Below are positions 1 to 40,154 of a DNA stretch of 64,000 nucleotides, piece by piece; positions within the stretch are counted from its first letter, which is position 1, and each line of letters opens with the position of its first letter. Origin of the DNA: Tubulanus polymorphus (lineage: Eukaryota; Animalia; Nemertea). A program made the translations under genes and the position numbers. The stretch covers positions 9,784,275 through 9,848,274 of the forward strand of contig NC_134032.1 in NCBI RefSeq assembly GCF_964204645.1, in the 5' to 3' direction. The notes under the pieces are model-generated. The model did no database searches. It was not told the DNA's origin and saw only the letters and a program-made list of their open reading frames with translations.

Positions 1-1022
1 TGATTAATGTTACAATTTTCAAATGATTTTACTTTTTCATTCATAAAATGTTTTTTAATTTCTACCCATTGATCTATCATTCTCATTCCTTGACAAAATA
101 TTTTATTCGCTATTCCTTCGATAGTTATTTCTACTTTTGTTATTTCAGGATTATAATAATTATCAACATTTATTGCACCATTAGTATACGTTCCAATAGT
201 AAAAAATATTAATATACCTTTAATAGATCTTCTAGGAAAGTTAATATTCTCATTTATTATTTCATCATTTGCATTAATAGTAACAGTTTTAAATTTATCA
301 ATATAATCATATAATAATGAAAACCCTTGATTGTATTTAGTTTGAATTATACTTGAAATATTTTCATCAGTTACTGTATCATATTCTAAACATATATTCG
401 ATAATTTATAACTCATATCTTTATTAACACTAGATATTACAATTTCATTTACAGGAGCAAATGTTATTTCGAATATAATATCTTCTTGAATTGCGTATTT
501 ATATAAAGGTGCATTATTATTTATCAATTCAAAGTCTAATGGAATTTTATATTTGCTTCCATATATACTTTTAATCAATTTATCTACATCATTAGTTAAT
601 ATTGCGCTATTAGCTTCTGATCTTAATTTATTTTGGTTTTCTGATTGAATTCCTTGAAATATCATATTATTTCTATTTTCTTTAGTTAACCACAAATCTT
701 TATAATGCATAAATAAATTATAATCATCTAATGAGAAAACTGTTTCTGGACCAATCTTTATTGTTAACTTTTTAATCAAATATCTTCCAACATTATCAAC
801 GACATAATTATTATTATTACCGATTACTTTTATATCAGCTGATAAATAAATACTGTTTGGAACATAAAAAGTATTTTGTGTTAATCTAGGAATTCTAACG
901 TATAAAGTTTCATCGGGATTGATATTAGAAGGGTTATGAGTAATTATATGATGTGATCTTTCTGCTTTAATAGCATTAGATATTCTATGATTCTTAGAAG
1001 GATTGATATAACTCCCACTCAT
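1..1022 (-). CDS. Putative double jelly-roll major capsid protein (3' end runs off the window)
   Basis: Not in the ORF track. Manual translation from ATG at 1022 is open to position 1: MSGSYINPSKNHRISNAIKAERSHHIITHNPSNINPDETLYVRIPRLTQNTFYVPNSIYLSADIKV...NVGRYLIKKLTIKIG...YKLSNICLEYD...NFPRRSIKGILIFF...YNPEITKVEITIEG. Alternating beta-strand pattern typical of Polinton/PLV MCPs. Confidence 0.75.
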   Translation of the reverse strand, partial: MSGSYINPSKNHRISNAIKAERSHHIITHNPSNINPDETLYVRIPRLTQNTFYVPNSIYLSADIKVIGNNNNYVVDNVGRYLIKKLTIKIGPETVFSLDDYNLFMHYKDLWLTKENRNNMIFQGIQSENQNKLRSEANSAILTNDVDKLIKSIYGSKYKIPLDFELINNNAPLYKYAIQEDIIFEITFAPVNEIVISSVNKDMSYKLSNICLEYDTVTDENISSIIQTKYNQGFSLLYDYIDKFKTVTINANDEIINENINFPRRSIKGILIFFTIGTYTNGAINVDNYYNPEITKVEITIEGIANKIFCQGMRMIDQWVEIKKHFMNEKVKSFENCNIN

Positions 1023-1046
1023 TTATTTAACAAAAAAATTAATTAT

Positions 1047-2611
1047 TTATTTTTTGATATTTTTTGATATCATATTTACTAAACCAAAAATAATAGCACT
1101 TACAACTGTAATTAAAAATAAAATAATATGTTCAGCAGCAAAGTTAATAATGTTTCCTGCAGATTTCAATATAAAACCAACAATTGAAGCAATAACTCCT
1201 GGTAAAGCTGCAGCAGATTTCTTTGATAGTTCCCATAAATATTTTGCTAATTTCTTTAAACCATCTTTAACTTTATCTTGTATAGAATTATTACCTGGAG
1301 GTTTATCTGGTTTATTGGGAGTAGGAGTAGATTTTAAAGCATTTGATATTGCTAAACCAATTGTTGTAAATACCATAGTTACAGCTGTTAGAATTGAAAG
1401 AATTGTTATTCCTTCTAATTCAAATAATAACTTTATTCTGTCTTTTAATGATATTTCAGAATTTGGTTTAATCAACAAATCTTTAAAAATAACTTTTAAT
1501 CTATTAATATTATAATCATATGATTTTAATAATAATTTAATTTCTTCTTTTTGTAATTCTATGTTATATTCTAAATCATCTTTTTCTTTTTCTAAATATG
1601 CATTTCTTTTTTTAAATTCAATTTCTTCAATAACTTTATTATCTCTATCTAATTTTAATTGTTCAATTTCTTTTCTTGATTTTAATAATTCATCTTCTAA
1701 AGTTCTAATTTTTAAATCTCTTATACTTTTATCATGCGCAATTTTTTCAGATGCAAGTCTTATACTAATAATTTCTCTAATTGCTTTATCAGAAAATATA
1801 TCTAAATCTTCTAATTCTTGATCTGTTGCATCAAGTAACCCATTCGGTAAAAGTTTTCAATTGGAACTTTATTTGATTTAGGTTTACTAGTTTTGGAAGT
1901 TTTATTCAGTAAGTTATCTAAACGTTTTTCTAATTGTGATTGACTTAAATCATTATCAATTTGTTGAGTGTCTCTTCTCGATGTTTCCGGTGTTGAAGAT
2001 CTTAATTTATCTCTATTCTCTTCCATTTCTGTTTCTAAATTATTATCGATTGTTTCAAATAATTTATTAATTCTTTGTTTAAATACTCTTTCATTTTTAA
2101 TAATTTCTTCTTGTGTTACATCTTCTGGTTCATTACTATTTCTTATTCTTTTAATTCTAGATAGGTTTAACTTAAGCAAAGTTGATTCTGCTAATATTTT
2201 TTCTTGTTTTTTATAAGAGATATCAATATAATAATCATCTTTCAAACGATAATAATATTCACCATCTAAAAATTTTAATTCTCTTATTAAATATCTGGCA
2301 CCTCTATCATTTATATTATATCCAGAATTTTCAAATACATGTTTGAAATTATAAATATATTCATTATATTCTAAATTTTGTTTTACTAAATCTGGATTTT
2401 CATTTTCAGGATTTATTCTCGATCTAGTTCTTCTATCAAATTCATCTGTTGATTGACCTTTAGAACCACTATCTGCTAAATTAGAATTATATGCTGATTC
2501 ATCATTATTATCAATATTAGTTTCTGCATCATTATAATCATCATCAATATATCCTTCATTATCATTTCCCATTTCTCCCATTTCATAATCTTCTACACCT
2601 TCTACTTCCAT
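1047..2611 (-). CDS. Acidic/coiled-coil protein with C-terminal membrane helices (~521 aa), split by a -1 frameshift near 1815-1858
   Basis: The 266-aa ORF (2611-1811) overlaps an ATG-less open frame from ~1858 to 1047 (LPNGLLDATDQELEDLDIFSDKAIREII...RLKVIFKDLLIKPNSE...) that includes the 143-aa hydrophobic ORF. Only the 2611 start has the element's promoter motif. Confidence 0.7.
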
Positions 2612-2627
2612 TTACATAATAAAAAAA

Positions 2628-4016
2628 TTAAAATTTAAAATATAATATTCCTCCGATTACAATTCCTATACAAGTTATAGCTAATTTAGTATTTTCATGG
2701 GATTTATTATCATCATTTAGTTTAATTATATCATGTTGAATATTATCAGTTTCAATATCTTCTGATGTATTGTAATCTTTTATTTTAGAATCATTATTTA
2801 ATTTAATATTCTTAGTTTTAGTTTCAGTTGATTGAATATGTTTTTTATTTTTTTCACCTTCCATTAATTTTGGAGCAGTAATAATCTTTTTATTTATATC
2901 ATTTAATCCAAATGAATTATTTATTGTTGCAGTTTTAATTAGATTATTATAACCAATTATGTTTCCCATCTTTAATACTAAATCATTAGAAATAATTAAT
3001 AGATTAGGGCCTATACAATAATTAAGTCTTACATGAGATTTATCTAAATAATTTTGATATCTTATAATGTTTTCTGGAATCGATCTATTTTTATCATTAT
3101 GTATGGAATCTTCAAATAAAACTTTAAACTGTTTTTGTGTATCGAATGATGTATTCAAATTTCCAATTATCGGTGATCTTGTTTCAACTTGTGATCCTAA
3201 AATACAAATCAAATAAGTTCTAATAGATTGATTTATTCTTTCTATACCTGATTTAGTAAAACCTTCACTATTTTCTAAAATAAAATAAACCCAACCATTA
3301 TTGTTTTCTTGTTTTAAATTATCATAAAATTTCGGTAATTTATTGAAATTTAATGTTTCTAAATCCTTTGTTTCTATTTTACCATAACCTAATTTTTTAT
3401 TATAGATATTATAAAAACTATTAGATGGTATGGGAAGTGCACAATATTCTGCAATCTTTTTAGGGCAAGGAAGTGATCTTATTGTTCCAATTTTTGTTCT
3501 AAAATCAGAATTATTTATATCTATATTAAATTCATTGCAAATTTTATAAAACTTAGATAAATTAATATTATTATCCAATTCTTTAAAATATCTAGATCCT
3601 GGTAAAGCACACTCTAATTCATTTAATATTATTCTGATTTGAAAGTATGTATGAAATCTAAATAAACTTTGAATTAGTTTATATTTAGAATTATTCAAAT
3701 GATCATTCCAACTAATTCCACATCCTGTTGTTGCACAATAAACAGCAAAATTTAATTGGTTCTGCCAATACTTCATATTAGATTTTAATAACCATTGTTT
3801 TTCATCTTTCAATTTTTTAAAATTAATTAAATATACATGAAATATATTTTCCATCTTTGCATTAAAATTATTAGTTTCAGTAACATAAATTTCTAAATTA
3901 GTTAGTGAATCTAAAACTTCATTTCTATATGTAATATCTTTATTAAAATCTATTGCTGGAATATTATATTTAATTGATTTATTATATCGGAAAGTTTTTG
4001 GAAAACTATCTACCAT
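2628..4016 (-). CDS. 462-aa viral protein with C-terminal transmembrane anchor, no signal peptide
   Basis: Intact ORF with a conserved-looking block WQNQLNFAVYCATTGCGIS, a low-complexity linker, then LAITCIGIVIGGILYFKF at the C terminus. Confidence 0.8.
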   Translation of the reverse strand: MVDSFPKTFRYNKSIKYNIPAIDFNKDITYRNEVLDSLTNLEIYVTETNNFNAKMENIFHVYLINFKKLKDEKQWLLKSNMKYWQNQLNFAVYCATTGCGISWNDHLNNSKYKLIQSLFRFHTYFQIRIILNELECALPGSRYFKELDNNINLSKFYKICNEFNIDINNSDFRTKIGTIRSLPCPKKIAEYCALPIPSNSFYNIYNKKLGYGKIETKDLETLNFNKLPKFYDNLKQENNNGWVYFILENSEGFTKSGIERINQSIRTYLICILGSQVETRSPIIGNLNTSFDTQKQFKVLFEDSIHNDKNRSIPENIIRYQNYLDKSHVRLNYCIGPNLLIISNDLVLKMGNIIGYNNLIKTATINNSFGLNDINKKIITAPKLMEGEKNKKHIQSTETKTKNIKLNNDSKIKDYNTSEDIETDNIQHDIIKLNDDNKSHENTKLAITCIGIVIGGILYFKF

Positions 4017-4033
4017 TTATATAATTAAAAAAA

Positions 4034-4468
4034 TTAATAATTTATTAATTCTTTTAATAATTTATCTTGTTCTTCAACTGTTATATGACCATTTAAACTT
4101 ATTATATAATCTAGTGTATTCTTTAATTTATTTATTTCTTTTATATTAGTTTTGATTTTTTCTTTATTACTTTTTATATTTAATTTTGAACTTATACCAG
4201 TTAAAACACTTGAACTTAATCCTAACACACCAATTGATATAGCTAAAGGTGTTAATGGACTGAATATTGCTAGAAATGTTATTACAGAACTAATTGTAAC
4301 CGAACCACTTATAATCAAATAATATATAATTTTACTTTTTAAATATTTTTTCTTTTTTATCTTTAAGTCACTTTCAAATTCTAATATTTGTTTTTCTAAA
4401 TATGTTTTTAATTTAGTTTTATTTATATCATGAGGAATAATATCAATACTATCAACTTTATCTTCCAT
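4034..4468 (-). CDS. 144-aa two-TM membrane protein flanked by coiled coils
   Basis: Hydrophobic hairpin IIYYLIISGSVTISSVITFLAIF / LAISIGVLGLSSSVLTGI. Promoter motif at start. Confidence 0.8.
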   Translation of the reverse strand: MEDKVDSIDIIPHDINKTKLKTYLEKQILEFESDLKIKKKKYLKSKIIYYLIISGSVTISSVITFLAIFSPLTPLAISIGVLGLSSSVLTGISSKLNIKSNKEKIKTNIKEINKLKNTLDYIISLNGHITVEEQDKLLKELINY

Positions 4469-4488
4469 TTATTTAGCAAAAAAAATTA

Positions 4489-4914
4489 CTAATTAGTAAA
4501 CTTATAAGCAACAAATATAACAATAACTGTTCCACCTAAAATCCATATTATTTCATATTTCTGTTGTTCTTTACTTGGGGTATAATAATCTGATAATTTA
4601 GGTTTGTATAGATGTAATTTTTCTTTATTGGTTACCGCGTTATATAAACTCATTGCATCATCAACTGATTGAAAATCTCTATGTGAAATCTTCTGATCAT
4701 ATAATTCTTTATTGATGTAATCCATATAGTTGTTTTGTCTCTTTTCTCTATATTCTTCTGCAGCTTTATTGTATTTCTCTAACGCTAAGTTATGTCTTCT
4801 TTGTTCTCCTAATGAACTATTTTTATCAATATGCTTAAATAAATAACCACCACCAGTAAATGCTAAAGCGTTAACAATTGCTGATCCTATAATAGTTATA
4901 ATTGCAGAAGCCAT
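4489..4914 (-). CDS. 141-aa membrane protein (N- and C-terminal hydrophobic segments, ExxRxNxxxE motif)
   Basis: MASAIITIIGSAIVNALAFTGGGYLF...EQRRHNLALE...IIWILGGTVIVIFVAYKF. Confidence 0.8.
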   Translation of the reverse strand: MASAIITIIGSAIVNALAFTGGGYLFKHIDKNSSLGEQRRHNLALEKYNKAAEEYREKRQNNYMDYINKELYDQKISHRDFQSVDDAMSLYNAVTNKEKLHLYKPKLSDYYTPSKEQQKYEIIWILGGTVIVIFVAYKFTN

Positions 4915-4939
4915 TTATTTAGCAAAAAAAATTATGCAT

Positions 4940-5161
4940 TTATATGGGAGGAATATATTTTTGTTTTTCCAAATAATCAATAGTTAAATTAGATAAAGTA
5001 ACTGCTAATGTTAACTTTAAAATATCATTTATATCAAATCTATCAACATTAACACTTCCCATTTTGAATACTTTTTTTAATACCATTGAATAACCAACAG
5101 TTCCAACTGATAGTAATGCGCCATTATATAATCCAGTTATTATCCACTTATTATCACTCAT
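4940..5161 (-). CDS. 73-aa small hydrophobic protein
   Basis: Intact ORF in the operon-like array, with promoter motif and two moderately hydrophobic segments. Confidence 0.7.
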   Translation of the reverse strand: MSDNKWIITGLYNGALLSVGTVGYSMVLKKVFKMGSVNVDRFDINDILKLTLAVTLSNLTIDYLEKQKYIPPI

Positions 5162-5518
5162 TTATTTATCAAAAAAATTACTATCATCAAAATATTTAGT
5201 TATCTTAGTGATGATTATTTCAACATTTATTTTATTACTAGTTTCATTTGTATATATTTCAATTATTATTTTTTTAATATCATCGATTATAAAATCTTCA
5301 TCTAATTCATAAAATCTTAAAGATTCTCTAATTAAATTAGTAATCTTTTCTACATTTAAAGTTTCTTTATCAATTGTTGTTTCATACTCAAATGTTGTTT
5401 CATTAGAAAATACAATATTTTTGATATGTGTTATTACATCATTAATATTAAATTTCATCTCTTTCTCACGTTTAAAATCAAATCCAAAACATATACTCGG
5501 TCCAACAGTTATATTCAT
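5162..5518 (-). CDS. 118-aa hypothetical viral protein
   Basis: Intact ORF abutting its neighbours, with promoter motif at start. Confidence 0.7.
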   Translation of the reverse strand: MNITVGPSICFGFDFKREKEMKFNINDVITHIKNIVFSNETTFEYETTIDKETLNVEKITNLIRESLRFYELDEDFIIDDIKKIIIEIYTNETSNKINVEIIITKITKYFDDSNFFDK

Positions 5519-5534
5519 TTATATATCAAAAAAA

Positions 5535-6290
5535 TTACTCTCTACATCTTATAACTAATTCATATATCACAGGAAAGTTATTTAAATCAATTAAGTATCC
5601 ATTATGATTTCTTATTTCTAATTTAAAATTATTAAATTTAGGAATGCAAGGTTTAAAATCACATTCTGTTAAATTATAATTTATTTGAGTTCCAAATTGT
5701 TTAACATTTTTTAGCGGTAAAATATTTAGTATACTAGAACTACAAATTGTTTCTTTAGTTGCTTCGAAAGTTTTTGTAGGCTCGATTAAATTGCAATAAA
5801 TATAAACGTGTGTAAAAGGTATTATATTTGAGCTGCCTTCTGCGTTTCCAGTAACTGTAAGTGGTTTAATTCCTAACATTTTAGCCAGTGGTTTGTTTAC
5901 CATAAATTTATGTTGTTCATTAGATATCTTTATTCTAATTTTATTAGTACTATCAATTTTATTAAATTTAATTTCAAATACAGAAGTGCCCCCGATTTTC
6001 AACCGAGCTCTTCTATTAATTTCCTGCGCTAATGATTCTAAATTATATAATCCTGGTTTTAAAAATATATGAAACCATTTATCTTTATTTCTCATATAAA
6101 TCATAAACCCTCTATGTTCAAAAGTTTTATCCGATATATTATAAAAAGAATTACATAAACTTATATTTACTAATTTTAAATCAACACAATTTTTGAATTC
6201 TCTGTCTAATTGTACTAATAAATTATGTGATTTATAATTTGTAAGTTTTCTAGAATCAACAAATATTCTGTATTCTTTTAATTCCGCCAT
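5535..6290 (-). CDS. Minor capsid (penton) protein, single jelly roll
   Basis: Penton-type motifs IFVDSR, ISLCNSFYNI, PGLYNLESL, VYIYCNLI, ILNILPL, LEIRNHNGYLIDLNN. Confidence 0.75.
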   Translation of the reverse strand: MAELKEYRIFVDSRKLTNYKSHNLLVQLDREFKNCVDLKLVNISLCNSFYNISDKTFEHRGFMIYMRNKDKWFHIFLKPGLYNLESLAQEINRRARLKIGGTSVFEIKFNKIDSTNKIRIKISNEQHKFMVNKPLAKMLGIKPLTVTGNAEGSSNIIPFTHVYIYCNLIEPTKTFEATKETICSSSILNILPLKNVKQFGTQINYNLTECDFKPCIPKFNNFKLEIRNHNGYLIDLNNFPVIYELVIRCRE

Positions 6291-6307
6291 TTATTTTACA
6301 TATTTTC

Positions 6308-6649
6308 TTATTCGAAATCTATTTCATTATGTCCTTTTTCATTCTTACCTTTGTATACAAAATAGAAATCACCAGAACATAATTCTTCTAGATCTTCACT
6401 TGATAATCTATGAAATCTATCTGGTAAATAAGTTCTGAATTTATATTTATTTCCTTTTAATCCTTCATATTCTAAATGAATTACTAATTTATCTCCATAT
6501 TTATTAGTAATTGTTTCAATGTTAGTAATTAAATATTTCTTGTGAATTGTTAACTCAGTTAGTTTTTTAAATTTATAATCTACAGATTTGACGCTTGAAG
6601 TATCTTTAATTCTATCTAAGAATTCACTGTGTACTTGTTTACTCTCCAT
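6308..6649 (-). CDS. 113-aa hypothetical protein next to pPolB (candidate OB-fold/ssDNA-binding, unverified)
   Basis: Intact ORF, short beta-rich protein (TNKYGDKLVIHLE, FRTYLPDRF). Shares an upstream motif with pPolB. Confidence 0.7.
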   Translation of the reverse strand: MESKQVHSEFLDRIKDTSSVKSVDYKFKKLTELTIHKKYLITNIETITNKYGDKLVIHLEYEGLKGNKYKFRTYLPDRFHRLSSEDLEELCSGDFYFVYKGKNEKGHNEIDFE

Positions 6650-6677
6650 TTATTATACAAATTTTTATTGAAATTGA

Positions 6678-9600
6678 TTAACACGTTAGAATCCTTTTCA
6701 TAATCTCATTTTCTTTTGTTTCTTCTCTTTTGAATTTTATATATTCATCTAAATTGCAACCATAGGCGACTGTGTGGATTCCATCATCTAAAATATATCT
6801 TTTATCATCAAATGGGTTTAGACTTATCTTCTCTATCTCTTCAATATACATTTCATGATCTTCAGATCTTAAACATTTCATTTTATGTTTTCTAACTTCT
6901 TCATTAAATATACAATTGATGTAATCTTTGAAATGAATATTCTTTTCTACTACACTTTTGGTTATTCCTTTTAACTTTTTAGCTTCATGTTCTTCAGTTT
7001 TATATGAATACATTTTAGATCTAATACCAATGAACTCTATCATTTCTTCACCGCCTAATTCATCTTTAAACTTCCCAGGAACTTTTTTATTATCATTGCT
7101 AAATAGTTCATGATTTTTTGGATAGTTACTAAAATCAAAATGGTGTTTTAATATTTTTAAATCATCTTTTATATTATCACTTTTTATCTTTAATATATAA
7201 CTGTCAGTATCAAAATATAATATTTCAATGTGTTTTTCCCCAAAATGGGGTTGCAATACATTATAATAGAATTCATACATCAATAGTTTTGAAATTTCTA
7301 AAACTGCAGCTCCAACATAAATAGGTTTATTGAACTTCATAGAAGTTCTTTTTAATTTAACTGCAGCTAAATTTTCATCGAATATTCTATTCCCTATGAA
7401 TTTCGGATACGATTGCAAATGTCTAATTCTTTTACCATTACTAACTAACTCAATATCATTTCTATTTCTAATATTTTCACATGTTTTTCCATAGAACGCA
7501 TTGTTCATTAGTTTAAAGTAATCTTTTTCAAAATCAGTTTTAGCTTCAGTTCTCTGTGTAGTATTAAAATCTATATATTTTTCTAACCATTTAGATTGAC
7601 TGAATGAAATATATCTATGTACTTTTTTTAGAATCATTCCTTGATTCAAATAAAACTTCAACATTCTATAATGTACTACATAATTATATTTATCTTCTTG
7701 AGTTACCATTAACTTTTCAGTATGAATATGATTATCGGGTTTAATTCTTTTTTGATAATTTGATAATTCTTCATGTTTAACAGTTTTATGTTCGGGACAA
7801 TATGCTAGATTTCTAGATTTGAATTTAATATTTTCAGGGTATTCTAAATCTACAACAAAGAAGTAACCAATATCTGAATCATCTGCAATATCTAGGATTC
7901 TTTTCTTCCAATCAAATTTATCAATTTGTAAAACTTCAGTTATTTCAAACATCCCATAAGGTTGTGGTTCCATCATTGCCCAACCATAAAGGTTATTTGC
8001 ATCTATATATAATAATTTATATCCAGGATTATCATTTACATTGAAATATCTATCACCCAATACACCTGAAACACCTCCTCTTATAGATTTTTCAAATAAT
8101 AGTAATTGATCTATATTTGTTAACAAATCCATTTTTATATCTGTAAATTTTAATCCACAATCCCATGTTAATCCTGGTGATGAATAACAATGACAAGGAT
8201 CAATATTGAAATATTTTAGGTTTACATCTCTAAACCTTTCAAATATATCAGTTAATAATAATACATCTGATTTTAAATATAAATCTACTAATTGTCCATG
8301 ATTTTTAATTTCGAAATGATTCCAAATATTCAATGTTCTATTATAAACTTCATCTTTAACATATTCATTTTTTAATTCATCATAGAATTGTTCTTTCAAT
8401 AATTCAGTTATTTTAAAATCATTATGATTTTTATAGAAAGAATATGGAATTGCTCCTTTATATCTCATTAATTTAAAATCATCATAATTTGGGTAATATT
8501 CTTTTAATATCTTTAATTCATCATCAACTAATGATTTTGATAAGTTATCTAATGAACTATTTAAAAATCTATATGAATCTATAAATCTTAGACAACCAAA
8601 TTGGAATGATATATAATTCTCAGATGTTTTAGCTAACATTCTAAATTTATAAGTTGGTATTTTATCTTTTGATTTATTTGAATTTAATATTTCTATTTCA
8701 TTATTAATTTCTTCTATTTTATGACACAGTTGTTTAATGAATAAATGCGCGTCATACCCCGATAAATTGTGAAATATAATGGGGACAAAATTTACTTTTT
8801 TAGCTTGCAAATTACAATTCTCATGTGCAGCGCCTCTAAATTTACCATTCAAATGGTCATGGTCTCTTACTTTTTTATCTTTATAATTAAATATCTTTTC
8901 ACAATAATAACATTTATCTGCAAACGCAAATACTTCTTTATCTTCTTCTGTCATTATAATTTCTATATTTGTATTCAATAATTTACTAAATCTTATTTCA
9001 TATTCAATTAATAAGTCACAAAAATAATTAATAACATTTTCATTTCTATACTGATAATATTCACTTTCAATTAGTTCTGGATAATCAGATTTAATATATA
9101 ACCCGAAAGCTGCAGCTGATTGATGAATCTTTTTAATAGTATTTGTTATTGGTGGTTCTTCTGAATAATCACTTTCATTAGAATTTAATTTCTTTCTTTT
9201 ATAATATATATCTTTTCTATCTTTATCTGTTAGTTCTTTATTTAATGATTCAAAATCTCCATATATAACAAATGGTACTTTATTTTTGTAATCATATTTT
9301 TTGAATTCTAATATTTTATCTTTTTCATTTGGTAAAACTAATTTACAATAATCATGATTATCACATAGTTGTTTATGATTTAATAATGTACTTTCATTAC
9401 TGAATCTATGTAAACATTTTCTACATAGATATATTTTATGGTGATCATTTTCTGATTTGAAAAATAAATCGATTTGTTTAATCCACATATAATGATTCTC
9501 ATAATATAGTATATCTATAACATCATTTGAATCATAATCTTTTGATAGATATAAAGGTTCTAATGTATAATGTTTAATATTATTTCCTTTTGTATTTGGT

Positions 9601-10700
9601 AATTTAATTAAATCAAATACATTTATTTTAAGATTATTATCTCTTTCTATTTTTGGAATATTTTTAATTCTAACAGGATACTTATCTATCTTATAATTAT
9701 TTTCAAATTGTTTATAATGAGTTAATCTACAAATATTATAAGTTGCAGGATGTAAACAACTTATTATAGCCCATAGAAAACATTTATCATCTTCATTTTG
9801 TACATTTATTACAGCATTAGTTTTAAATGGTAGTTTAATATAACTCGATGCTTCAATATCAGGTTCTTTATAATATGATAAATTATTTTCATCAATTGGT
9901 TTTGATTTAGTTAACTTATTATATTTTGTGTTATAAACATGTAAAGTTATAAATATTATCTCATCAAATATTAAACCAGATCCTTCAAAATATTTCTCTT
10001 CTATTTTAGTTTTTATTTCATTATAACATTTATTTAATTTATCATCTATATGTTGTTTAGATATAATATGTTGTGAATGAGAATTTATATTATATATTGG
10101 TTTATCTTCAGATTTTATAAACTTTACTTTAACTGATATACTAATTTTAGGATATTCAACATCTGTAATTATTTTTATTATTTCTTTCATATTTTCTAAA
10201 TGTTTTTTATTTTCTTCTAATGTTTTACCTTTATGAAATTTAAACTCAATAGCTGCTGGACCAATATCACTTTTAAATGCTTCGGTTATCTCTATATCTT
10301 TTTTATTATCTAATGAATTAATATAATTTCTTACATCTTCCATATATGGTCTTTTATTGTTTAATTTATTTTTTATTCTTTTAATTGTCTTCTGTTTCTT
10401 ATCGTTATCATTATCAAAATAATCTTCACCTAAAATATCATTATTCTTATTTCTAATATGACTTATAGATTTTAAATGTTCTTTATAATATCTTTTATCA
10501 CTGAATGATTGATTACATGTATCACATTTGTATGTTTCTTTTTCATTCTTTAATTCTTCTAATTTAGTTTCTAATATATCATCCTTATATTCTAGTTTCA
10601 ATTTATTCTCTAAATGTGTTTTAGTTTTATTGTGTCTTGCTTTTTGAGACTTGTCTATATCAATATTACATGTTGGGCAGTAGTACTTATTTGCTTCCAT
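6678..10700 (-). CDS. polB: Protein-primed family B DNA polymerase (pPolB), 1340 aa, multidomain
   Basis: ExoI IYGDFES, ExoII FHNLSGYD, ExoIII YLKSDV, motif A YIDANNLYGWAM, motif B KLMNNAFYGK, motif C YFDTDS. Also N-terminal C2H2 fingers, vOTU-like NEDDKCFLW...ENHYMWI, and HNH/EndoVII insert CYYC...DHDHLNGKFRGAAHENCN. Confidence 0.95.
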   Translation of the reverse strand: MEANKYYCPTCNIDIDKSQKARHNKTKTHLENKLKLEYKDDILETKLEELKNEKETYKCDTCNQSFSDKRYYKEHLKSISHIRNKNNDILGEDYFDNDNDKKQKTIKRIKNKLNNKRPYMEDVRNYINSLDNKKDIEITEAFKSDIGPAAIEFKFHKGKTLEENKKHLENMKEIIKIITDVEYPKISISVKVKFIKSEDKPIYNINSHSQHIISKQHIDDKLNKCYNEIKTKIEEKYFEGSGLIFDEIIFITLHVYNTKYNKLTKSKPIDENNLSYYKEPDIEASSYIKLPFKTNAVINVQNEDDKCFLWAIISCLHPATYNICRLTHYKQFENNYKIDKYPVRIKNIPKIERDNNLKINVFDLIKLPNTKGNNIKHYTLEPLYLSKDYDSNDVIDILYYENHYMWIKQIDLFFKSENDHHKIYLCRKCLHRFSNESTLLNHKQLCDNHDYCKLVLPNEKDKILEFKKYDYKNKVPFVIYGDFESLNKELTDKDRKDIYYKRKKLNSNESDYSEEPPITNTIKKIHQSAAAFGLYIKSDYPELIESEYYQYRNENVINYFCDLLIEYEIRFSKLLNTNIEIIMTEEDKEVFAFADKCYYCEKIFNYKDKKVRDHDHLNGKFRGAAHENCNLQAKKVNFVPIIFHNLSGYDAHLFIKQLCHKIEEINNEIEILNSNKSKDKIPTYKFRMLAKTSENYISFQFGCLRFIDSYRFLNSSLDNLSKSLVDDELKILKEYYPNYDDFKLMRYKGAIPYSFYKNHNDFKITELLKEQFYDELKNEYVKDEVYNRTLNIWNHFEIKNHGQLVDLYLKSDVLLLTDIFERFRDVNLKYFNIDPCHCYSSPGLTWDCGLKFTDIKMDLLTNIDQLLLFEKSIRGGVSGVLGDRYFNVNDNPGYKLLYIDANNLYGWAMMEPQPYGMFEITEVLQIDKFDWKKRILDIADDSDIGYFFVVDLEYPENIKFKSRNLAYCPEHKTVKHEELSNYQKRIKPDNHIHTEKLMVTQEDKYNYVVHYRMLKFYLNQGMILKKVHRYISFSQSKWLEKYIDFNTTQRTEAKTDFEKDYFKLMNNAFYGKTCENIRNRNDIELVSNGKRIRHLQSYPKFIGNRIFDENLAAVKLKRTSMKFNKPIYVGAAVLEISKLLMYEFYYNVLQPHFGEKHIEILYFDTDSYILKIKSDNIKDDLKILKHHFDFSNYPKNHELFSNDNKKVPGKFKDELGGEEMIEFIGIRSKMYSYKTEEHEAKKLKGITKSVVEKNIHFKDYINCIFNEEVRKHKMKCLRSEDHEMYIEEIEKISLNPFDDKRYILDDGIHTVAYGCNLDEYIKFKREETKENEIMKRILTC

Positions 10701-10780
10701 TTTAATACTATATTTTTTATTAAAATTGATTTTAGAAGTTCAATGATTTAAATGTTATTCATTTATGTGAATATTTTAGG

Positions 10781-11186
10781 AGTAATAGGGGTAATGGGCT
10801 TTCGGGTTAAAGGTTTAATGATCGAGTTCATTAATAACATATATTAAAAGTAATTAAAAAACTATAATATATTTTCATAACCGCGTGCATTTCAGTTGAA
10901 TAATAGAATAATTATTATCATTTGAATATATTTGATTATTTGAATTTGTGTATTGTAATTAAATCAATTGGTCGCGGAGCGGAGCGGTGGCGAAGCGGAG
11001 CGACCAATTGATTTAATACAATATGCTTTTTATATTATTGATATCTTAGAATAAATATTTAGTTTTGATATAAAATGCACGCGGTTATGAAAATATATTA
11101 TAGTTTTTTAATTACTTTTAATATTTTGTTTTTTAATGGGCTCGACCGTTCGACCTTTGATCTGAAAGCCCATTACCCCTATTACT
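10781..11186. repeat. Terminal imperfect palindrome/hairpin of the Polinton
   Basis: Perfect 23-bp arms 10781-10803/11164-11186, perfect 52-bp arms 10841-10892/11073-11124, inner stem ~10951-10975/11000-11023 and a GC-rich GCGGA-repeat loop. Confidence 0.95.
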
Positions 11187-11799
11187 TACTCTACTGGTAC
11201 TGTTTTATGTATCGGTTAGGTTTTCGTCGTGAAAAATGACCCTTGAAATTCGGTCTACAGACTCGCTCAGAAAACGTTTTGACACTTCTTTTTGAAAAAT
11301 GTTTGTGATCCCAGACCCCCCTCAGTGGGCGTCGCGCCTGCGGCGCTCGCGCTGTAGGCTTCGCCTCCAGCTTAACTCACGATATGGTCCCAATTTATGG
11401 AAAAAGAACCCCCCGCCGAAATCTCACGCTACGGGCCTGTAGCAATACGAATATGAACTAACTTCATCAACACCGATCGAACGAAAACGGAAGGAATCCG
11501 TACATGGCCACCAAGGCCGCATGAAAATCCATTTACTGTCGAAAACGATACCAAAAGCGAAGATCTGGGGGCGTCGTTGTACGGATTGCGATGACAACAG
11601 TCAGCCGTCAATAGTGGTCAATAGTCAGTGAAATTTCTGTACCGTACTTGGGGATCTTTGCATCCCTGCAAATCGTACCATTACATTTATCGCTCAACGT
11701 GTGCTTTTTGTTGGACCGGAGAAATATTAGTTGGTTTATATCAAATCACATGAATCTAAAATACTTTTGACAAGATTTTCACAAAAGCTTATTGAATAA

Positions 11800-12010
11800 G
11801 GCTAAACAAATTGATACCTTGTTTCTCCGCTTTGCTGAGCTTATCAGTTGACCCGGCCGGCCGTCTATCTACCCTATACATCACTTTTTTTAAATCGTGA
11901 TCAATTTTACCATAACAGACCCGGCCGCTATAGAAATGAATTGTTTACATATCTTATCATATTTAAAAAAGTGACCCCTGCCGCTGCGGAGAAACAAGGT
12001 ATCATTTTTG
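11800..12010. mobile_element. PIF/Harbinger-like MITE family H1, copy 1 (right end degenerate)
   Basis: TIR GGCTAAACAAATTGATACCTTGTTTCTCCGC. Same family as 18080-18281 and 19372-19591. Confidence 0.7.
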
Positions 12011-12600
12011 TATACCCTTGACGCTTGAAGGAAAATGTAAATTTATACATGTAACTGCAGGATTGTGTTGTTGTTGAATGAAACATTCTTATTCGTGTCA
12101 ACAGCACTGATGTAACCAGATGAAAAGTCCAATACAATCTATTGAAGTGAAACCACAACGTTTCGGCTGTGTTGTTGACTCATGAGAGCGTGTGATTGCA
12201 TTTTACATGTTTTGTGTCCAATCGTTGTGTATAGTCATAACATGTAATTACGAATAGATTACTGGCATTATTTTTATGAAAAGTGTCTGGAATTACTTCA
12301 TGAACACCAACCAATCAGTGTTGACCTCCTGTCGAAATCCTACTAAAGGTACAACTCTGTGGTCTGGGTCTACCCCTTCAAAAGTTCGACGCTTCCAGAC
12401 AAAATGCAAACATGTGACCCGTTTGTTGACGTCCTCTATCCACCTGCAGTTTATAAATGTCCTCCTGTCTTGTTAAAAGGCTTCAGAAAAACAGATCTTC
12501 AGAGACAACTATTTCTATGATCAGATCATTTTTTATTCCTTTTCGAGCTTGAACCAATTAAACAATGTGGTGAATAATTGAAATAAATCGAGCATCGGTG

Positions 12601-38831: not shown

Positions 38832-40154
38832 CTCTTCTTGTAACTTAATTCCAAAGTTCAGGTGAATCTAATACCCCGAGCAACTTAACAAAATCCTTAT
38901 GTTAGTGTAATCCAAACGCTTAAGGAAGAACTATCCGCTGACAATGACTGCACTCGCCGCCTACAAGAATATTTCAACTACTCGTGACATGTAATTCACA
39001 ACATGTCCGAAAGCGCCGCCATCTTGCAACAAATAGGTTGTCAACTATAGCGACCTTGACTTCAAAAATATCGGTTCAAAATTTTACCAATAATTTATTC
39101 ATTTGACGCCAAGCCTCGAAAGCATTCGAAATATTTTCAAATTCTCAATCCTCTCAATGATAAATTACTTAATTTGACCGCATTATTTCATTAATGAGGC
39201 TTTCTACTGACTCTAGCGCCATCTATCCACTAGCAAATGCATCAAAAAAATTGATTTATAATTAAAGATGTGAACTTAAAAGCAATCTTCTCTACACGAA
39301 TTTCCCAGTATTTTGAAATATTTCCATCCCCTTAATAATGGTTTTTGAAAGTAGCCCACCGCTCAGTAAATCTCAGAACAAGTTTTTTAAAACTAATTAA
39401 GGCGTTGGCAGCTTGCCAGGGTTTAGTGTAAGCTTATTGATTTGAGTGCTGAAACAGTGTTGCCACTCTCCGTCAAAACTGAGTAGTTTTTCCCACACAG
39501 GACCAACATGCCCGCCGGTCTAGAACCATGGAAAATAACGGTATTTCATCGTTTAATCGCCTTGCTTCATAAGATCACGCATCACTCGCTTCGAATCGCA
39601 CATAAAACGAACACTTTGACTTGAGAAGAGTTTTTCCAAAACTTTTTGAGAGGGTTGAGAATTAGGACATGAGGCACCCGAAAACAATTTCACATCAAAA
39701 CCCGCTTTAAAAGTCATCAACCTTTTCGGTATCTAAAAATCATCATTAAAATTCATTTATTTATCAAAAAAACTGAACTGAATACAAAAAAGGTGTACAA
39801 CTTAATTTCTTAGTAACTTCAGTATAGATGAATAAGGGTTTTAGAAAACAACGGTCCGGCAAGCGGCAGAAGCTTGCCTAAAACGTCCCCTATTCCCTCA
39901 CGCCTTAATCTTATCGAGTAAATGGCACAGGACCAATGTGTCTTTAGTTACTCTGTGAGCAGGTTTGACTCAAAACAAAAATCCATAGACAACTTAAGCG
40001 AAACGTCGGGGATTCCGACTTCTGCCGTCTACGAACAAATCACGACTATCAATCATAGCGTCCCTAGCAGCGAACTCAGGGCAGTTTTTGGGCTAATAAA
40101 CTGGTATTTTGCATATTCGTCGAGGGATCGAACCCTGTCGATCGGGTCAGAGAA
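38832..40154. promoter_or_regulatory. Probable divergent promoter region of the PAF-AH gene and FBXO16
   Basis: Head-to-head genes with start codons 1.6 kb apart. Minus-strand donor GAG|GTAGG at 38831 and a YY1-type motif CAAGATGGCGGC at ~39015-39026 (minus). Confidence 0.5.

Follow-up and report, generated by a model that had tools for sequence, protein, structure and literature searches.

In a 64,000-nucleotide (nt) stretch of the ribbon worm Tubulanus polymorphus genome (contig NC_134032.1, positions 9,784,275 to 9,848,274, forward strand; hereafter the window, meaning the whole stretch analysed, whose own numbering is used throughout), we find an endogenous Polinton whose gene starts carry a compact signal: TAAATG or TAAAATG on the start codon, preceded at about 10-20 nt by a core rich in T or in A. 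The reading we favour, at a probability of roughly 0.6, is that a co-infecting virus of poxvirus-like type supplies the cytoplasmic RNA polymerase that transcribes this element, which would make it a virophage-like satellite, as suggested by the make-up of its start signals. The question addressed here is how Polintons of animals come to be transcribed and whether some of them depend on a helper virus.

Start signals of a multicopy Polinton

The first 11.2 kb of the window have a GC content of 21-26%, compared to about 40% farther on, and hold one end of the element with ten genes. All of them lie in tandem on the minus strand, with successive intergenic gaps of 28, 17, 16, 0, 25, 20, 17, 16 and 24 nt, while the half of the element downstream of the capsid gene falls outside the window. 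The features are listed below together with the start motif of each gene (ORF, open reading frame; aa, amino acids; N, any base).

10781-11195, minus strand: element end, with AGTAG at 11195 on the minus strand and a 406-nt imperfect palindrome at 10781-11186
10698-10720, minus strand: A-rich core and TAAAATG before PolB, putative intermediate-like promoter, from its pattern in comparison with vaccinia intermediate promoters
6678-10700, minus strand: PolB, Polinton-type family B DNA polymerase, 1340 aa, N-terminal zinc fingers, recognised by PolB motifs in the translation
6308-6649, minus strand: 113-aa ORF, A-rich core and TAAATG at 6647-6668
5535-6290, minus strand: penton (minor capsid protein) of 251 aa, A-rich core and TAAATG at 6288-6311
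5162-5518, minus strand: 118-aa ORF, T7-N6-TAAATG at 5516-5537
4940-5161, minus strand: 73-aa conserved small ORF, T7-N6-TAAATG at 5159-5180, within upstream coding sequence
4489-4914, minus strand: 141-aa ORF encoding two hydrophobic segments, T8-N6-TAAATG at 4912-4934
4034-4468, minus strand: 144-aa ORF encoding two hydrophobic segments, T8-N6-TAAATG at 4466-4488
2628-4016, minus strand: 462-aa conserved ORF with C-terminal hydrophobic anchor, T7-N7-TAAATG at 4014-4036
1047-2611, minus strand: conserved gene with three C-terminal hydrophobic segments, T7-N6-TAAATG at 2609-2630
1-1022, minus strand: major capsid protein with double jelly-roll fold, continuing past the window edge, T7-N6-TAAATG at 1020-1041

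An earlier, sequence-only reading of this DNA had reported seven genes starting in one identical frame, TAA-T7/8-N6/7-TAAATG, and all seven copies were found at the positions listed. Two of them (4466-4488 and 4912-4934) are letter-identical, and the copy at 5159-5180 is kept inside the coding sequence of the 118-aa ORF. Dinucleotide shuffles of the AT-rich element alone (n = 500) yielded a mean of 0.002 and a maximum of 1 such match versus the seven observed, and shuffles of the whole window a mean of 0.02. On the coding strand of positions 1-11400, all seven runs of at least seven T lie within this frame; T stands about 10 nt upstream of TAAAT in 7/7 of the motifs, and AATAAA is present in 4/7. 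The three remaining starts, likewise noted before, lack the T-run and read TAAATG (6649 and 6290) or TAAAATG (PolB, 10700). A second motif, ATAA(A/G)AA-N8-11-TAAA(A)TG, which is a post hoc pattern, matches the element exactly at these three starts, a number that 0/500 shuffles reach. A further T7-N6-TAAATG match near 39772, in host DNA with no linked element, was rejected as chance.

Two accompanying claims held in part. Of the five membrane proteins proposed, four have a hydrophobic segment at a Kyte-Doolittle value of at least 1.6, the threshold used here, whereas the 73-aa ORF has none. The compact spacing of 0-28 nt was measured as described, but as an argument against host promoters it is weak, because sister Polintons without the motif are compact as well.

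That the element is an endogenous animal Polinton is borne out by its capsid, penton and PolB genes, its copy number and its ribbon-worm host. [quoted passage not shown] For the 251-aa protein (pLDDT 72.7) the best fold match is the mavirus penton (E 2.7e-10). By these models the element has both the double jelly-roll major capsid protein and the penton expected of a Maverick-Polinton. The 1340-aa protein is a protein-primed-type family B DNA polymerase, an assignment which rests on motifs and context because Pfam returned Endonuclease_7 and zinc-finger matches only and DNA_pol_B_2 gave no match. With its C-terminal 1099 aa as query, 32,422 relatives were retrieved at E <= 0.001, the best of them 78% identical.

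In raw reads carrying the same species label, mean depth is about 540 over the element versus 20-33 in two unique flank bins, and loose ends behind 11186 are seen in 1501 reads, at an agreement of 0.34, i.e. these reads continue into many different flanks. Since the depth is raised and these reads leave the element end into dissimilar sequence, the element belongs to a multicopy integrated family; among the matches listed, no read record spans the junction of this particular copy. The length of the T-run at 4027-4033 and 4924-4931 varies by one base between copies in host reads. Contig depth of the element is about 4-6-fold higher in run X1 than in runs X2 and X6, relative to two host repeats, which we dropped as evidence as summed contig depth does not equal copy number. 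Polinton ends begin with 5'-AG, as does the end found here. The terminal palindrome has a GC-rich tip and a fold z-score of -19.9, and a strand displaced at this site could pair with itself; a large terminal palindrome was found in none of seven related loci, whose ends may be missing.

The start motif in related Polintons

Relatives were collected in a metagenome scan, from which the best 80 of 102 were kept. A capsid tree was built from those loci whose ORF reached at least 280 aa (40 of 81), and the remaining 41 were assigned by their best tblastn match. Support is 100/99 for the 15-row clade of group A, 100/100 for the 4-row clade of group B and 100/100 for the 17-row clade of group E; the tree is midpoint-rooted with an open deep fork, and L056 forms a long branch, so that a single gain of the motif is not separable from repeated gains. 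An automatic procedure took as gene starts those of ORFs for which a diverged homologue matched at the N-terminus; identical upstream 20-mers were counted once. The resulting shares of starts with TAA directly before the ATG (TAA-ATG) are lower bounds, because broken ORFs add false internal starts.

TAA-ATG was found at 52/67 starts in group A, 26/39 in B and 5/7 in C (83/113 in total), and at 134/2722, 54/1417 and 17/237 of the non-start ATGs in the same groups. The sister groups show it at 4/158 (E), 0/9 (D) and 0/2 (L057) starts, a total of 4/169. An effect of AT content does not account for this difference, because the signal is rare in E loci below 40% GC (2/36) and frequent in A (8/11) and B (19/29) loci with at least 35% GC. 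Judged from these counts, the TAA-ATG start signal is a lineage trait of groups A-C.

The two core classes recur in the six closest loci, where the T-rich core goes with the major capsid and membrane genes and the A-rich core with PolB, penton, ATPase and zinc-finger genes. The classes are mostly retained by orthologues, with two genes changing class. The A-core pattern, present at 3/10 starts of the window and kept in the orthologous ATPase, penton and zinc-finger genes, is post hoc and corresponds to a weak intermediate consensus.

In sister lineages without TAAATG (L030, L031, the group E loci and L255-L260) TATA often stands within 12 nt of the ATG, namely at 7/9 starts in D (p 1e-8) and 28/163 in E (p 3e-8), in some cases with an upstream T-tract. 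This arrangement resembles the late initiator of African swine fever virus (ASFV). The capsid relatives L255-L260, together with the P0048 cluster, are filed under bacterial assemblies and are likely eukaryotic DNA carried into those bins.

The position of the motif relative to neighbouring genes was evaluated for all 83 TAA-ATG starts. Hereof 25 are divergent, 37 are tandem with a gap, 4 use the TAA as the upstream stop codon, 12 lie at a contig edge and the remaining 5 are without any neighbour in the adjacent 150 nt. Compared to 205 non-start TAAATG sites, T is enriched at -16 to -10 (p 6e-14; divergent starts alone, p 8e-6). Head-to-head pairs in which one or both genes start with TAAATG, with 14-30 nt between the genes or an overlap of 22 nt, occur in L007, L008, L010, L012, L015, L019, L022, L059, L060 and L062. 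At convergent 3' ends, by contrast, a T7 run is missing from all 18 and TTTTTNT is present in 1/18. Because the motif heads divergent pairs and the T-run goes with starts and not with stops, the motif appears to behave as a promoter, and not as a terminator, a stop-start overlap or Kozak context; the earlier proposal that the T-runs are terminators is not supported. A trans-splice acceptor was ruled out, there being no AG before the ATG. The base at -3 is T at 91/113 starts in groups A-C and a purine at 115/158 starts in group E. T is the disfavoured Kozak base at this position. It would be harmless if, as happens in vaccinia, transcription began within AAA and slippage added the poly(A) leader, since the T would then never enter the mRNA.

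Which polymerase reads the signal

Vaccinia late promoters consist of TAAATG and a T ten bases upstream and intermediate promoters of TAAA and an A-rich core (PMC11980589; PMC5294985), the TAAA being read by the viral polymerase itself (PMC12917281) and initiation taking place in AAA with a slipped 5' poly(A) leader (PMC6211774). A blind IMG/VR scan for the motif matched at least 120 loci. Among the matches listed that held at least two scored ORFs, a poxvirus core region (L146, 6/8) has the top TAA-ATG share, followed by the iridovirus-like contig L084 (3/6); divergent genes in L146 are also spaced by 14 nt, as in L019, L059 and L060. We then compared 5 of 13 poxvirus stretches with 13 iridovirus-like and 27 other large-virus stretches, the latter two labels resting on one shared gene, on what Pfam found in four loci and on known family associations. 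A T some 10 nt ahead of TAAAT was present at 28/38 poxvirus, 42/52 group A and 20/31 group B+C starts, and at 13/38 iridovirus-like ones. AATAA-ATG makes up 37/38 of the iridovirus-like TAA-ATG starts, which have no T-tract, as compared to 12/38 in poxviruses and 23/52 and 10/31 in the Polintons. The T-profiles of the two Polinton sets correlate at 0.52 and 0.60 with the poxvirus profile versus 0.24 and 0.03 with the iridovirus-like one. A positional classifier, correct in leave-one-out tests for 26/38 (pox), 32/38 (iridovirus-like) and 49/73 (other) starts, sent 48 of the 83 Polinton starts to poxviruses, 27 to other large viruses and 8 to iridovirus-like viruses.

By sequence, the elements share both marks of poxvirus late promoters, TAAATG on the start codon and T about 10 nt upstream, and there is a likeness between poxvirus intermediate promoters and the A-rich starts of PolB, penton and ATPase. 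The poxvirus half of the former helper proposal is supported, in that poxvirus late promoters are a better match to the motif profile than iridovirus-like starts are. Its asfar-like half is not supported for this element, since ASFV has TATA as its late initiator (PMC7163114), whereas the invariant element here is TAA-ATG. As a whole, the earlier interpretation is partly supported: an animal Polinton with poxvirus-late-like promoters is, T-run terminators and an asfar-like helper are not. T5 depletion in coding strands, seemingly supportive in the window, was rejected as evidence because group E shows the same. Near-invariant AATAA before many start codons of the iridovirus-like L084 and L201-L213 may be a late signal, and is absent from the review passages available. 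On the IMG/VR contig L118 (1060-5991; 46% GC, one DUF5872 gene) TAA-ATG stands at 5/12 ORFs.

In the favoured reading, a DNA copy of the element would reach the virus factory of the helper, whose polymerase would initiate within the AAA of TAAAT and add a 5' poly(A) leader by slippage. The A-core genes (PolB, penton, packaging ATPase, zinc-finger proteins) would fire first, as an intermediate class, and the T-core genes (major capsid and membrane proteins) as the late class, with transcripts ending without discrete terminators. An rve integrase, as seen in relatives, would return copies to the host genome. This reading makes no claim of host benefit.

Several observations weigh against it. The helper virus was not found, and the literature searched holds no nemertean poxvirus. 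A comparison of 116 poxvirus ORFs, from one core region only, with 633 ORFs of these loci gave no similarity, and Pfam returned no Pox-specific family beyond the general A32 ATPase in 58 scanned proteins, a set which includes genes beyond the capsid gene in L001, L002, L012 and L013 and no complete element. The remainder of the window's own copy lies beyond the window edge. No route out of the nucleus is explained for an integrated copy without host-type promoters. TAAAT inside coding sequences of groups A-C is not depleted (332 observed, 324 expected), in contrast to poxvirus (29/49 and 100/134) and iridovirus-like genes, and AATAAA is found near stops in 21/101 cases versus 12.5 expected, as host-type poly(A) signals would give (group E, 10/140 versus 4.3 expected). 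The 113-aa and 118-aa genes differ in class between the window and L001, where the orthologue of the former has a T-type start. TAA-ATG is also frequent elsewhere, at 38/130 iridovirus-like and 73/344 other large-virus starts; group A alone splits into 23 pox, 21 other and 8 iridovirus-like assignments, against a poxvirus reference of 38 starts from five chordopoxvirus stretches. Moreover, the compared starts are phylogenetically non-independent.

These shares and the 21/52 group A starts classified as "other" are what a helper from another nucleocytovirus group would lead one to expect, be it iridovirus-like or another member of the Megaviricetes with frequent ATAAATG starts, and iridovirus-like particles have been reported from marine invertebrates including Nereis (PMC5923455). 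We consider such a helper unlikely; for its iridovirus-like form, the near-invariant AATAA without a T-tract and the low T-profile correlations do not match the Polinton starts. Only somewhat more doubtful a candidate is host RNA polymerase II (Pol II), acting on an autonomous nuclear Polinton through a lineage-specific compact initiator that converged on the poxvirus one. Some step must begin in the nucleus because the element is integrated and multicopy, and the modest AATAAA enrichment near stops and the unavoided internal TAAAT are in line with this improbable alternative. However, a start at or a few bases from the ATG leaves no 5' untranslated region, and the disfavoured T at -3 prevails here while sister group E keeps a purine. 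We know of no animal Pol II core element of such form. Very improbable is a poxvirus-derived polymerase supplied by the element itself or by a cytoplasmic linear plasmid partner: an RNA polymerase domain was found in none of the 58 scanned proteins, and no upstream element of the ATNTGA type was noticed, albeit without a formal test for one. The precedent is provided by the yeast pGKL elements, which use TAAAN and 5' poly(A) leaders with a polymerase of their own (PMC6211774). Finally, a role of the motif at 3' ends or in translation (as T-run terminator, as AATAAA poly(A) site of the upstream gene or through TAA-ATG coupling of stop and start on polycistronic RNA) would agree with the tandem window genes, the TAA ahead of the T-run that is often the upstream stop and the AATAAA inside four window motifs, but is already largely refuted and highly implausible given the 25 starts without a same-strand upstream gene, the mere four that use TAA as upstream stop, the convergent 3' ends devoid of T7 and the many starts reading GTTAA, TTTAA or TGTAA before the ATG.

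If transcription by a poxvirus-like helper is correct, a helper's promoter at nearly every start would extend the mavirus-type model of endogenous virophages from protists to animals, promoter evidence would join the single report of poxvirus hyperparasites, and poxvirus-like viruses would be predicted in marine worms. A broader proposal is tentative and, on balance, doubtful: that a widespread invertebrate Polinton lineage consists of endogenous poxvirus virophages which run their helper's intermediate-to-late cascade, provide animals with a heritable and inducible defence against viruses, and point to poxviruses of marine invertebrates that await discovery, with the TATA sister lineages tuned to asfar-like helpers and promoter grammar reading out the helper.

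Gene content and known systems

Among the remaining genes, the one at 2611-1047 is broken near 1850-1860 in this copy and split over two frames, and the 462-aa protein has no Pfam match and no usable Atlas match. The 144-aa gene and its counterparts (L001:2541-2975, L008:2348-2956) encode a two-helix membrane protein with weak SLATT or ApoL-like matches below the cut-off; SLATT-like genes have been noted in entomopoxvirus-associated Polinton-like viruses (10.64898/2026.10.13.758929). L001 and L012, whose capsids are 76% identical to that of the window, carry an rve-chromo integrase and an A32 ATPase after the capsid gene. Two relatives have a deoxynucleoside kinase gene (L001:10340-10981, L006:2895-3377), which suits replication away from nuclear nucleotide pools; its closest named relatives are not poxviral. 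Outside the element, the window contains host exons at 16880-42507 resembling a WD40 gene and PAF-acetylhydrolase (both by eye) and FBXO16, the latter with a 95% match to Tubulanus polymorphus FBXO16 and 65% to that of Lineus, as well as high-copy host repeats near 11700-12100 and 13200.

With Maverick-Polintons and adintoviruses (PMC8502044) the element shares PolB, double jelly-roll capsid, penton and many integrated copies in an animal genome, and its close relatives share the rve integrase and A32-type ATPase. It differs in that no adenain-type cysteine protease was found in the 58 scanned proteins, which make up no complete element, and in its capsid lacking a Pfam match above the cut-off. 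Poxvirus-type start signals are not described for Maverick-Polintons or adintoviruses in the literature searched, which left aside papers behind subscription and the supplements to PMC11296320 and to bioRxiv preprints.

The entomopoxvirus-associated Polinton-like viruses of moths (Barth et al. 2024, PMC11296320) are, like the element, small and Polinton-like, and have been proposed as poxvirus hyperparasites. In the main text of that source the evidence is co-purification and gene sharing, the word "promoter" is absent, a cysteine protease is encoded and an rve integrase was not detected. In contrast, the evidence for the element is promoter grammar and its host is a marine worm, the two being compared by description only. 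Two 2026 preprints on these viruses make no mention of "promoter", and an egovirus preprint ties pox relatives to parabasalid Polintons via a gene, not via promoters.

Compared to vaccinia intermediate and late promoters, as given in PMC11980589, PMC5294985 and PMC12917281, the element likewise has TAAAT(G) on the start codon with a T-tract 5-7 nt upstream or an A/T-rich core, membrane and capsid genes in the T class and the packaging ATPase in the A class. In the element, whose promoter function is predicted, the T-runs show greater length and less variation (7-8 T in the window) and internal TAAAT is not avoided. The yeast cytoplasmic virus-like elements pGKL1/2 are not known to have a capsid or an integrase. 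They are linear with a TAAAN initiator at gene starts, and differ by an RNA polymerase and capping enzyme of their own and by an early-type upstream element (PMC6211774).

A parallel in mode of action would be offered by mavirus and the endogenous mavirus-like elements (EMALEs) of Cafeteria (PMC8547959) and by Gezel-14T/PgVV (10.1101/2022.07.28.501842), which are small integrated or helper-dependent DNA viruses with their helper's promoter motif. Mavirus is silent until infection by Cafeteria roenbergensis virus (CroV), and EMALE types carry differing motifs (PMC8547959). Their hosts are protists, their helpers belong to the Imitervirales, their motifs are TCTA or AAAATTGA, and their dependence has been shown experimentally; the penton of the element folds, as modelled, like that of mavirus. 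In conclusion, we regard the feature as real; the element would work like mavirus, the EMALEs and PgVV, and is by gene content a Polinton.

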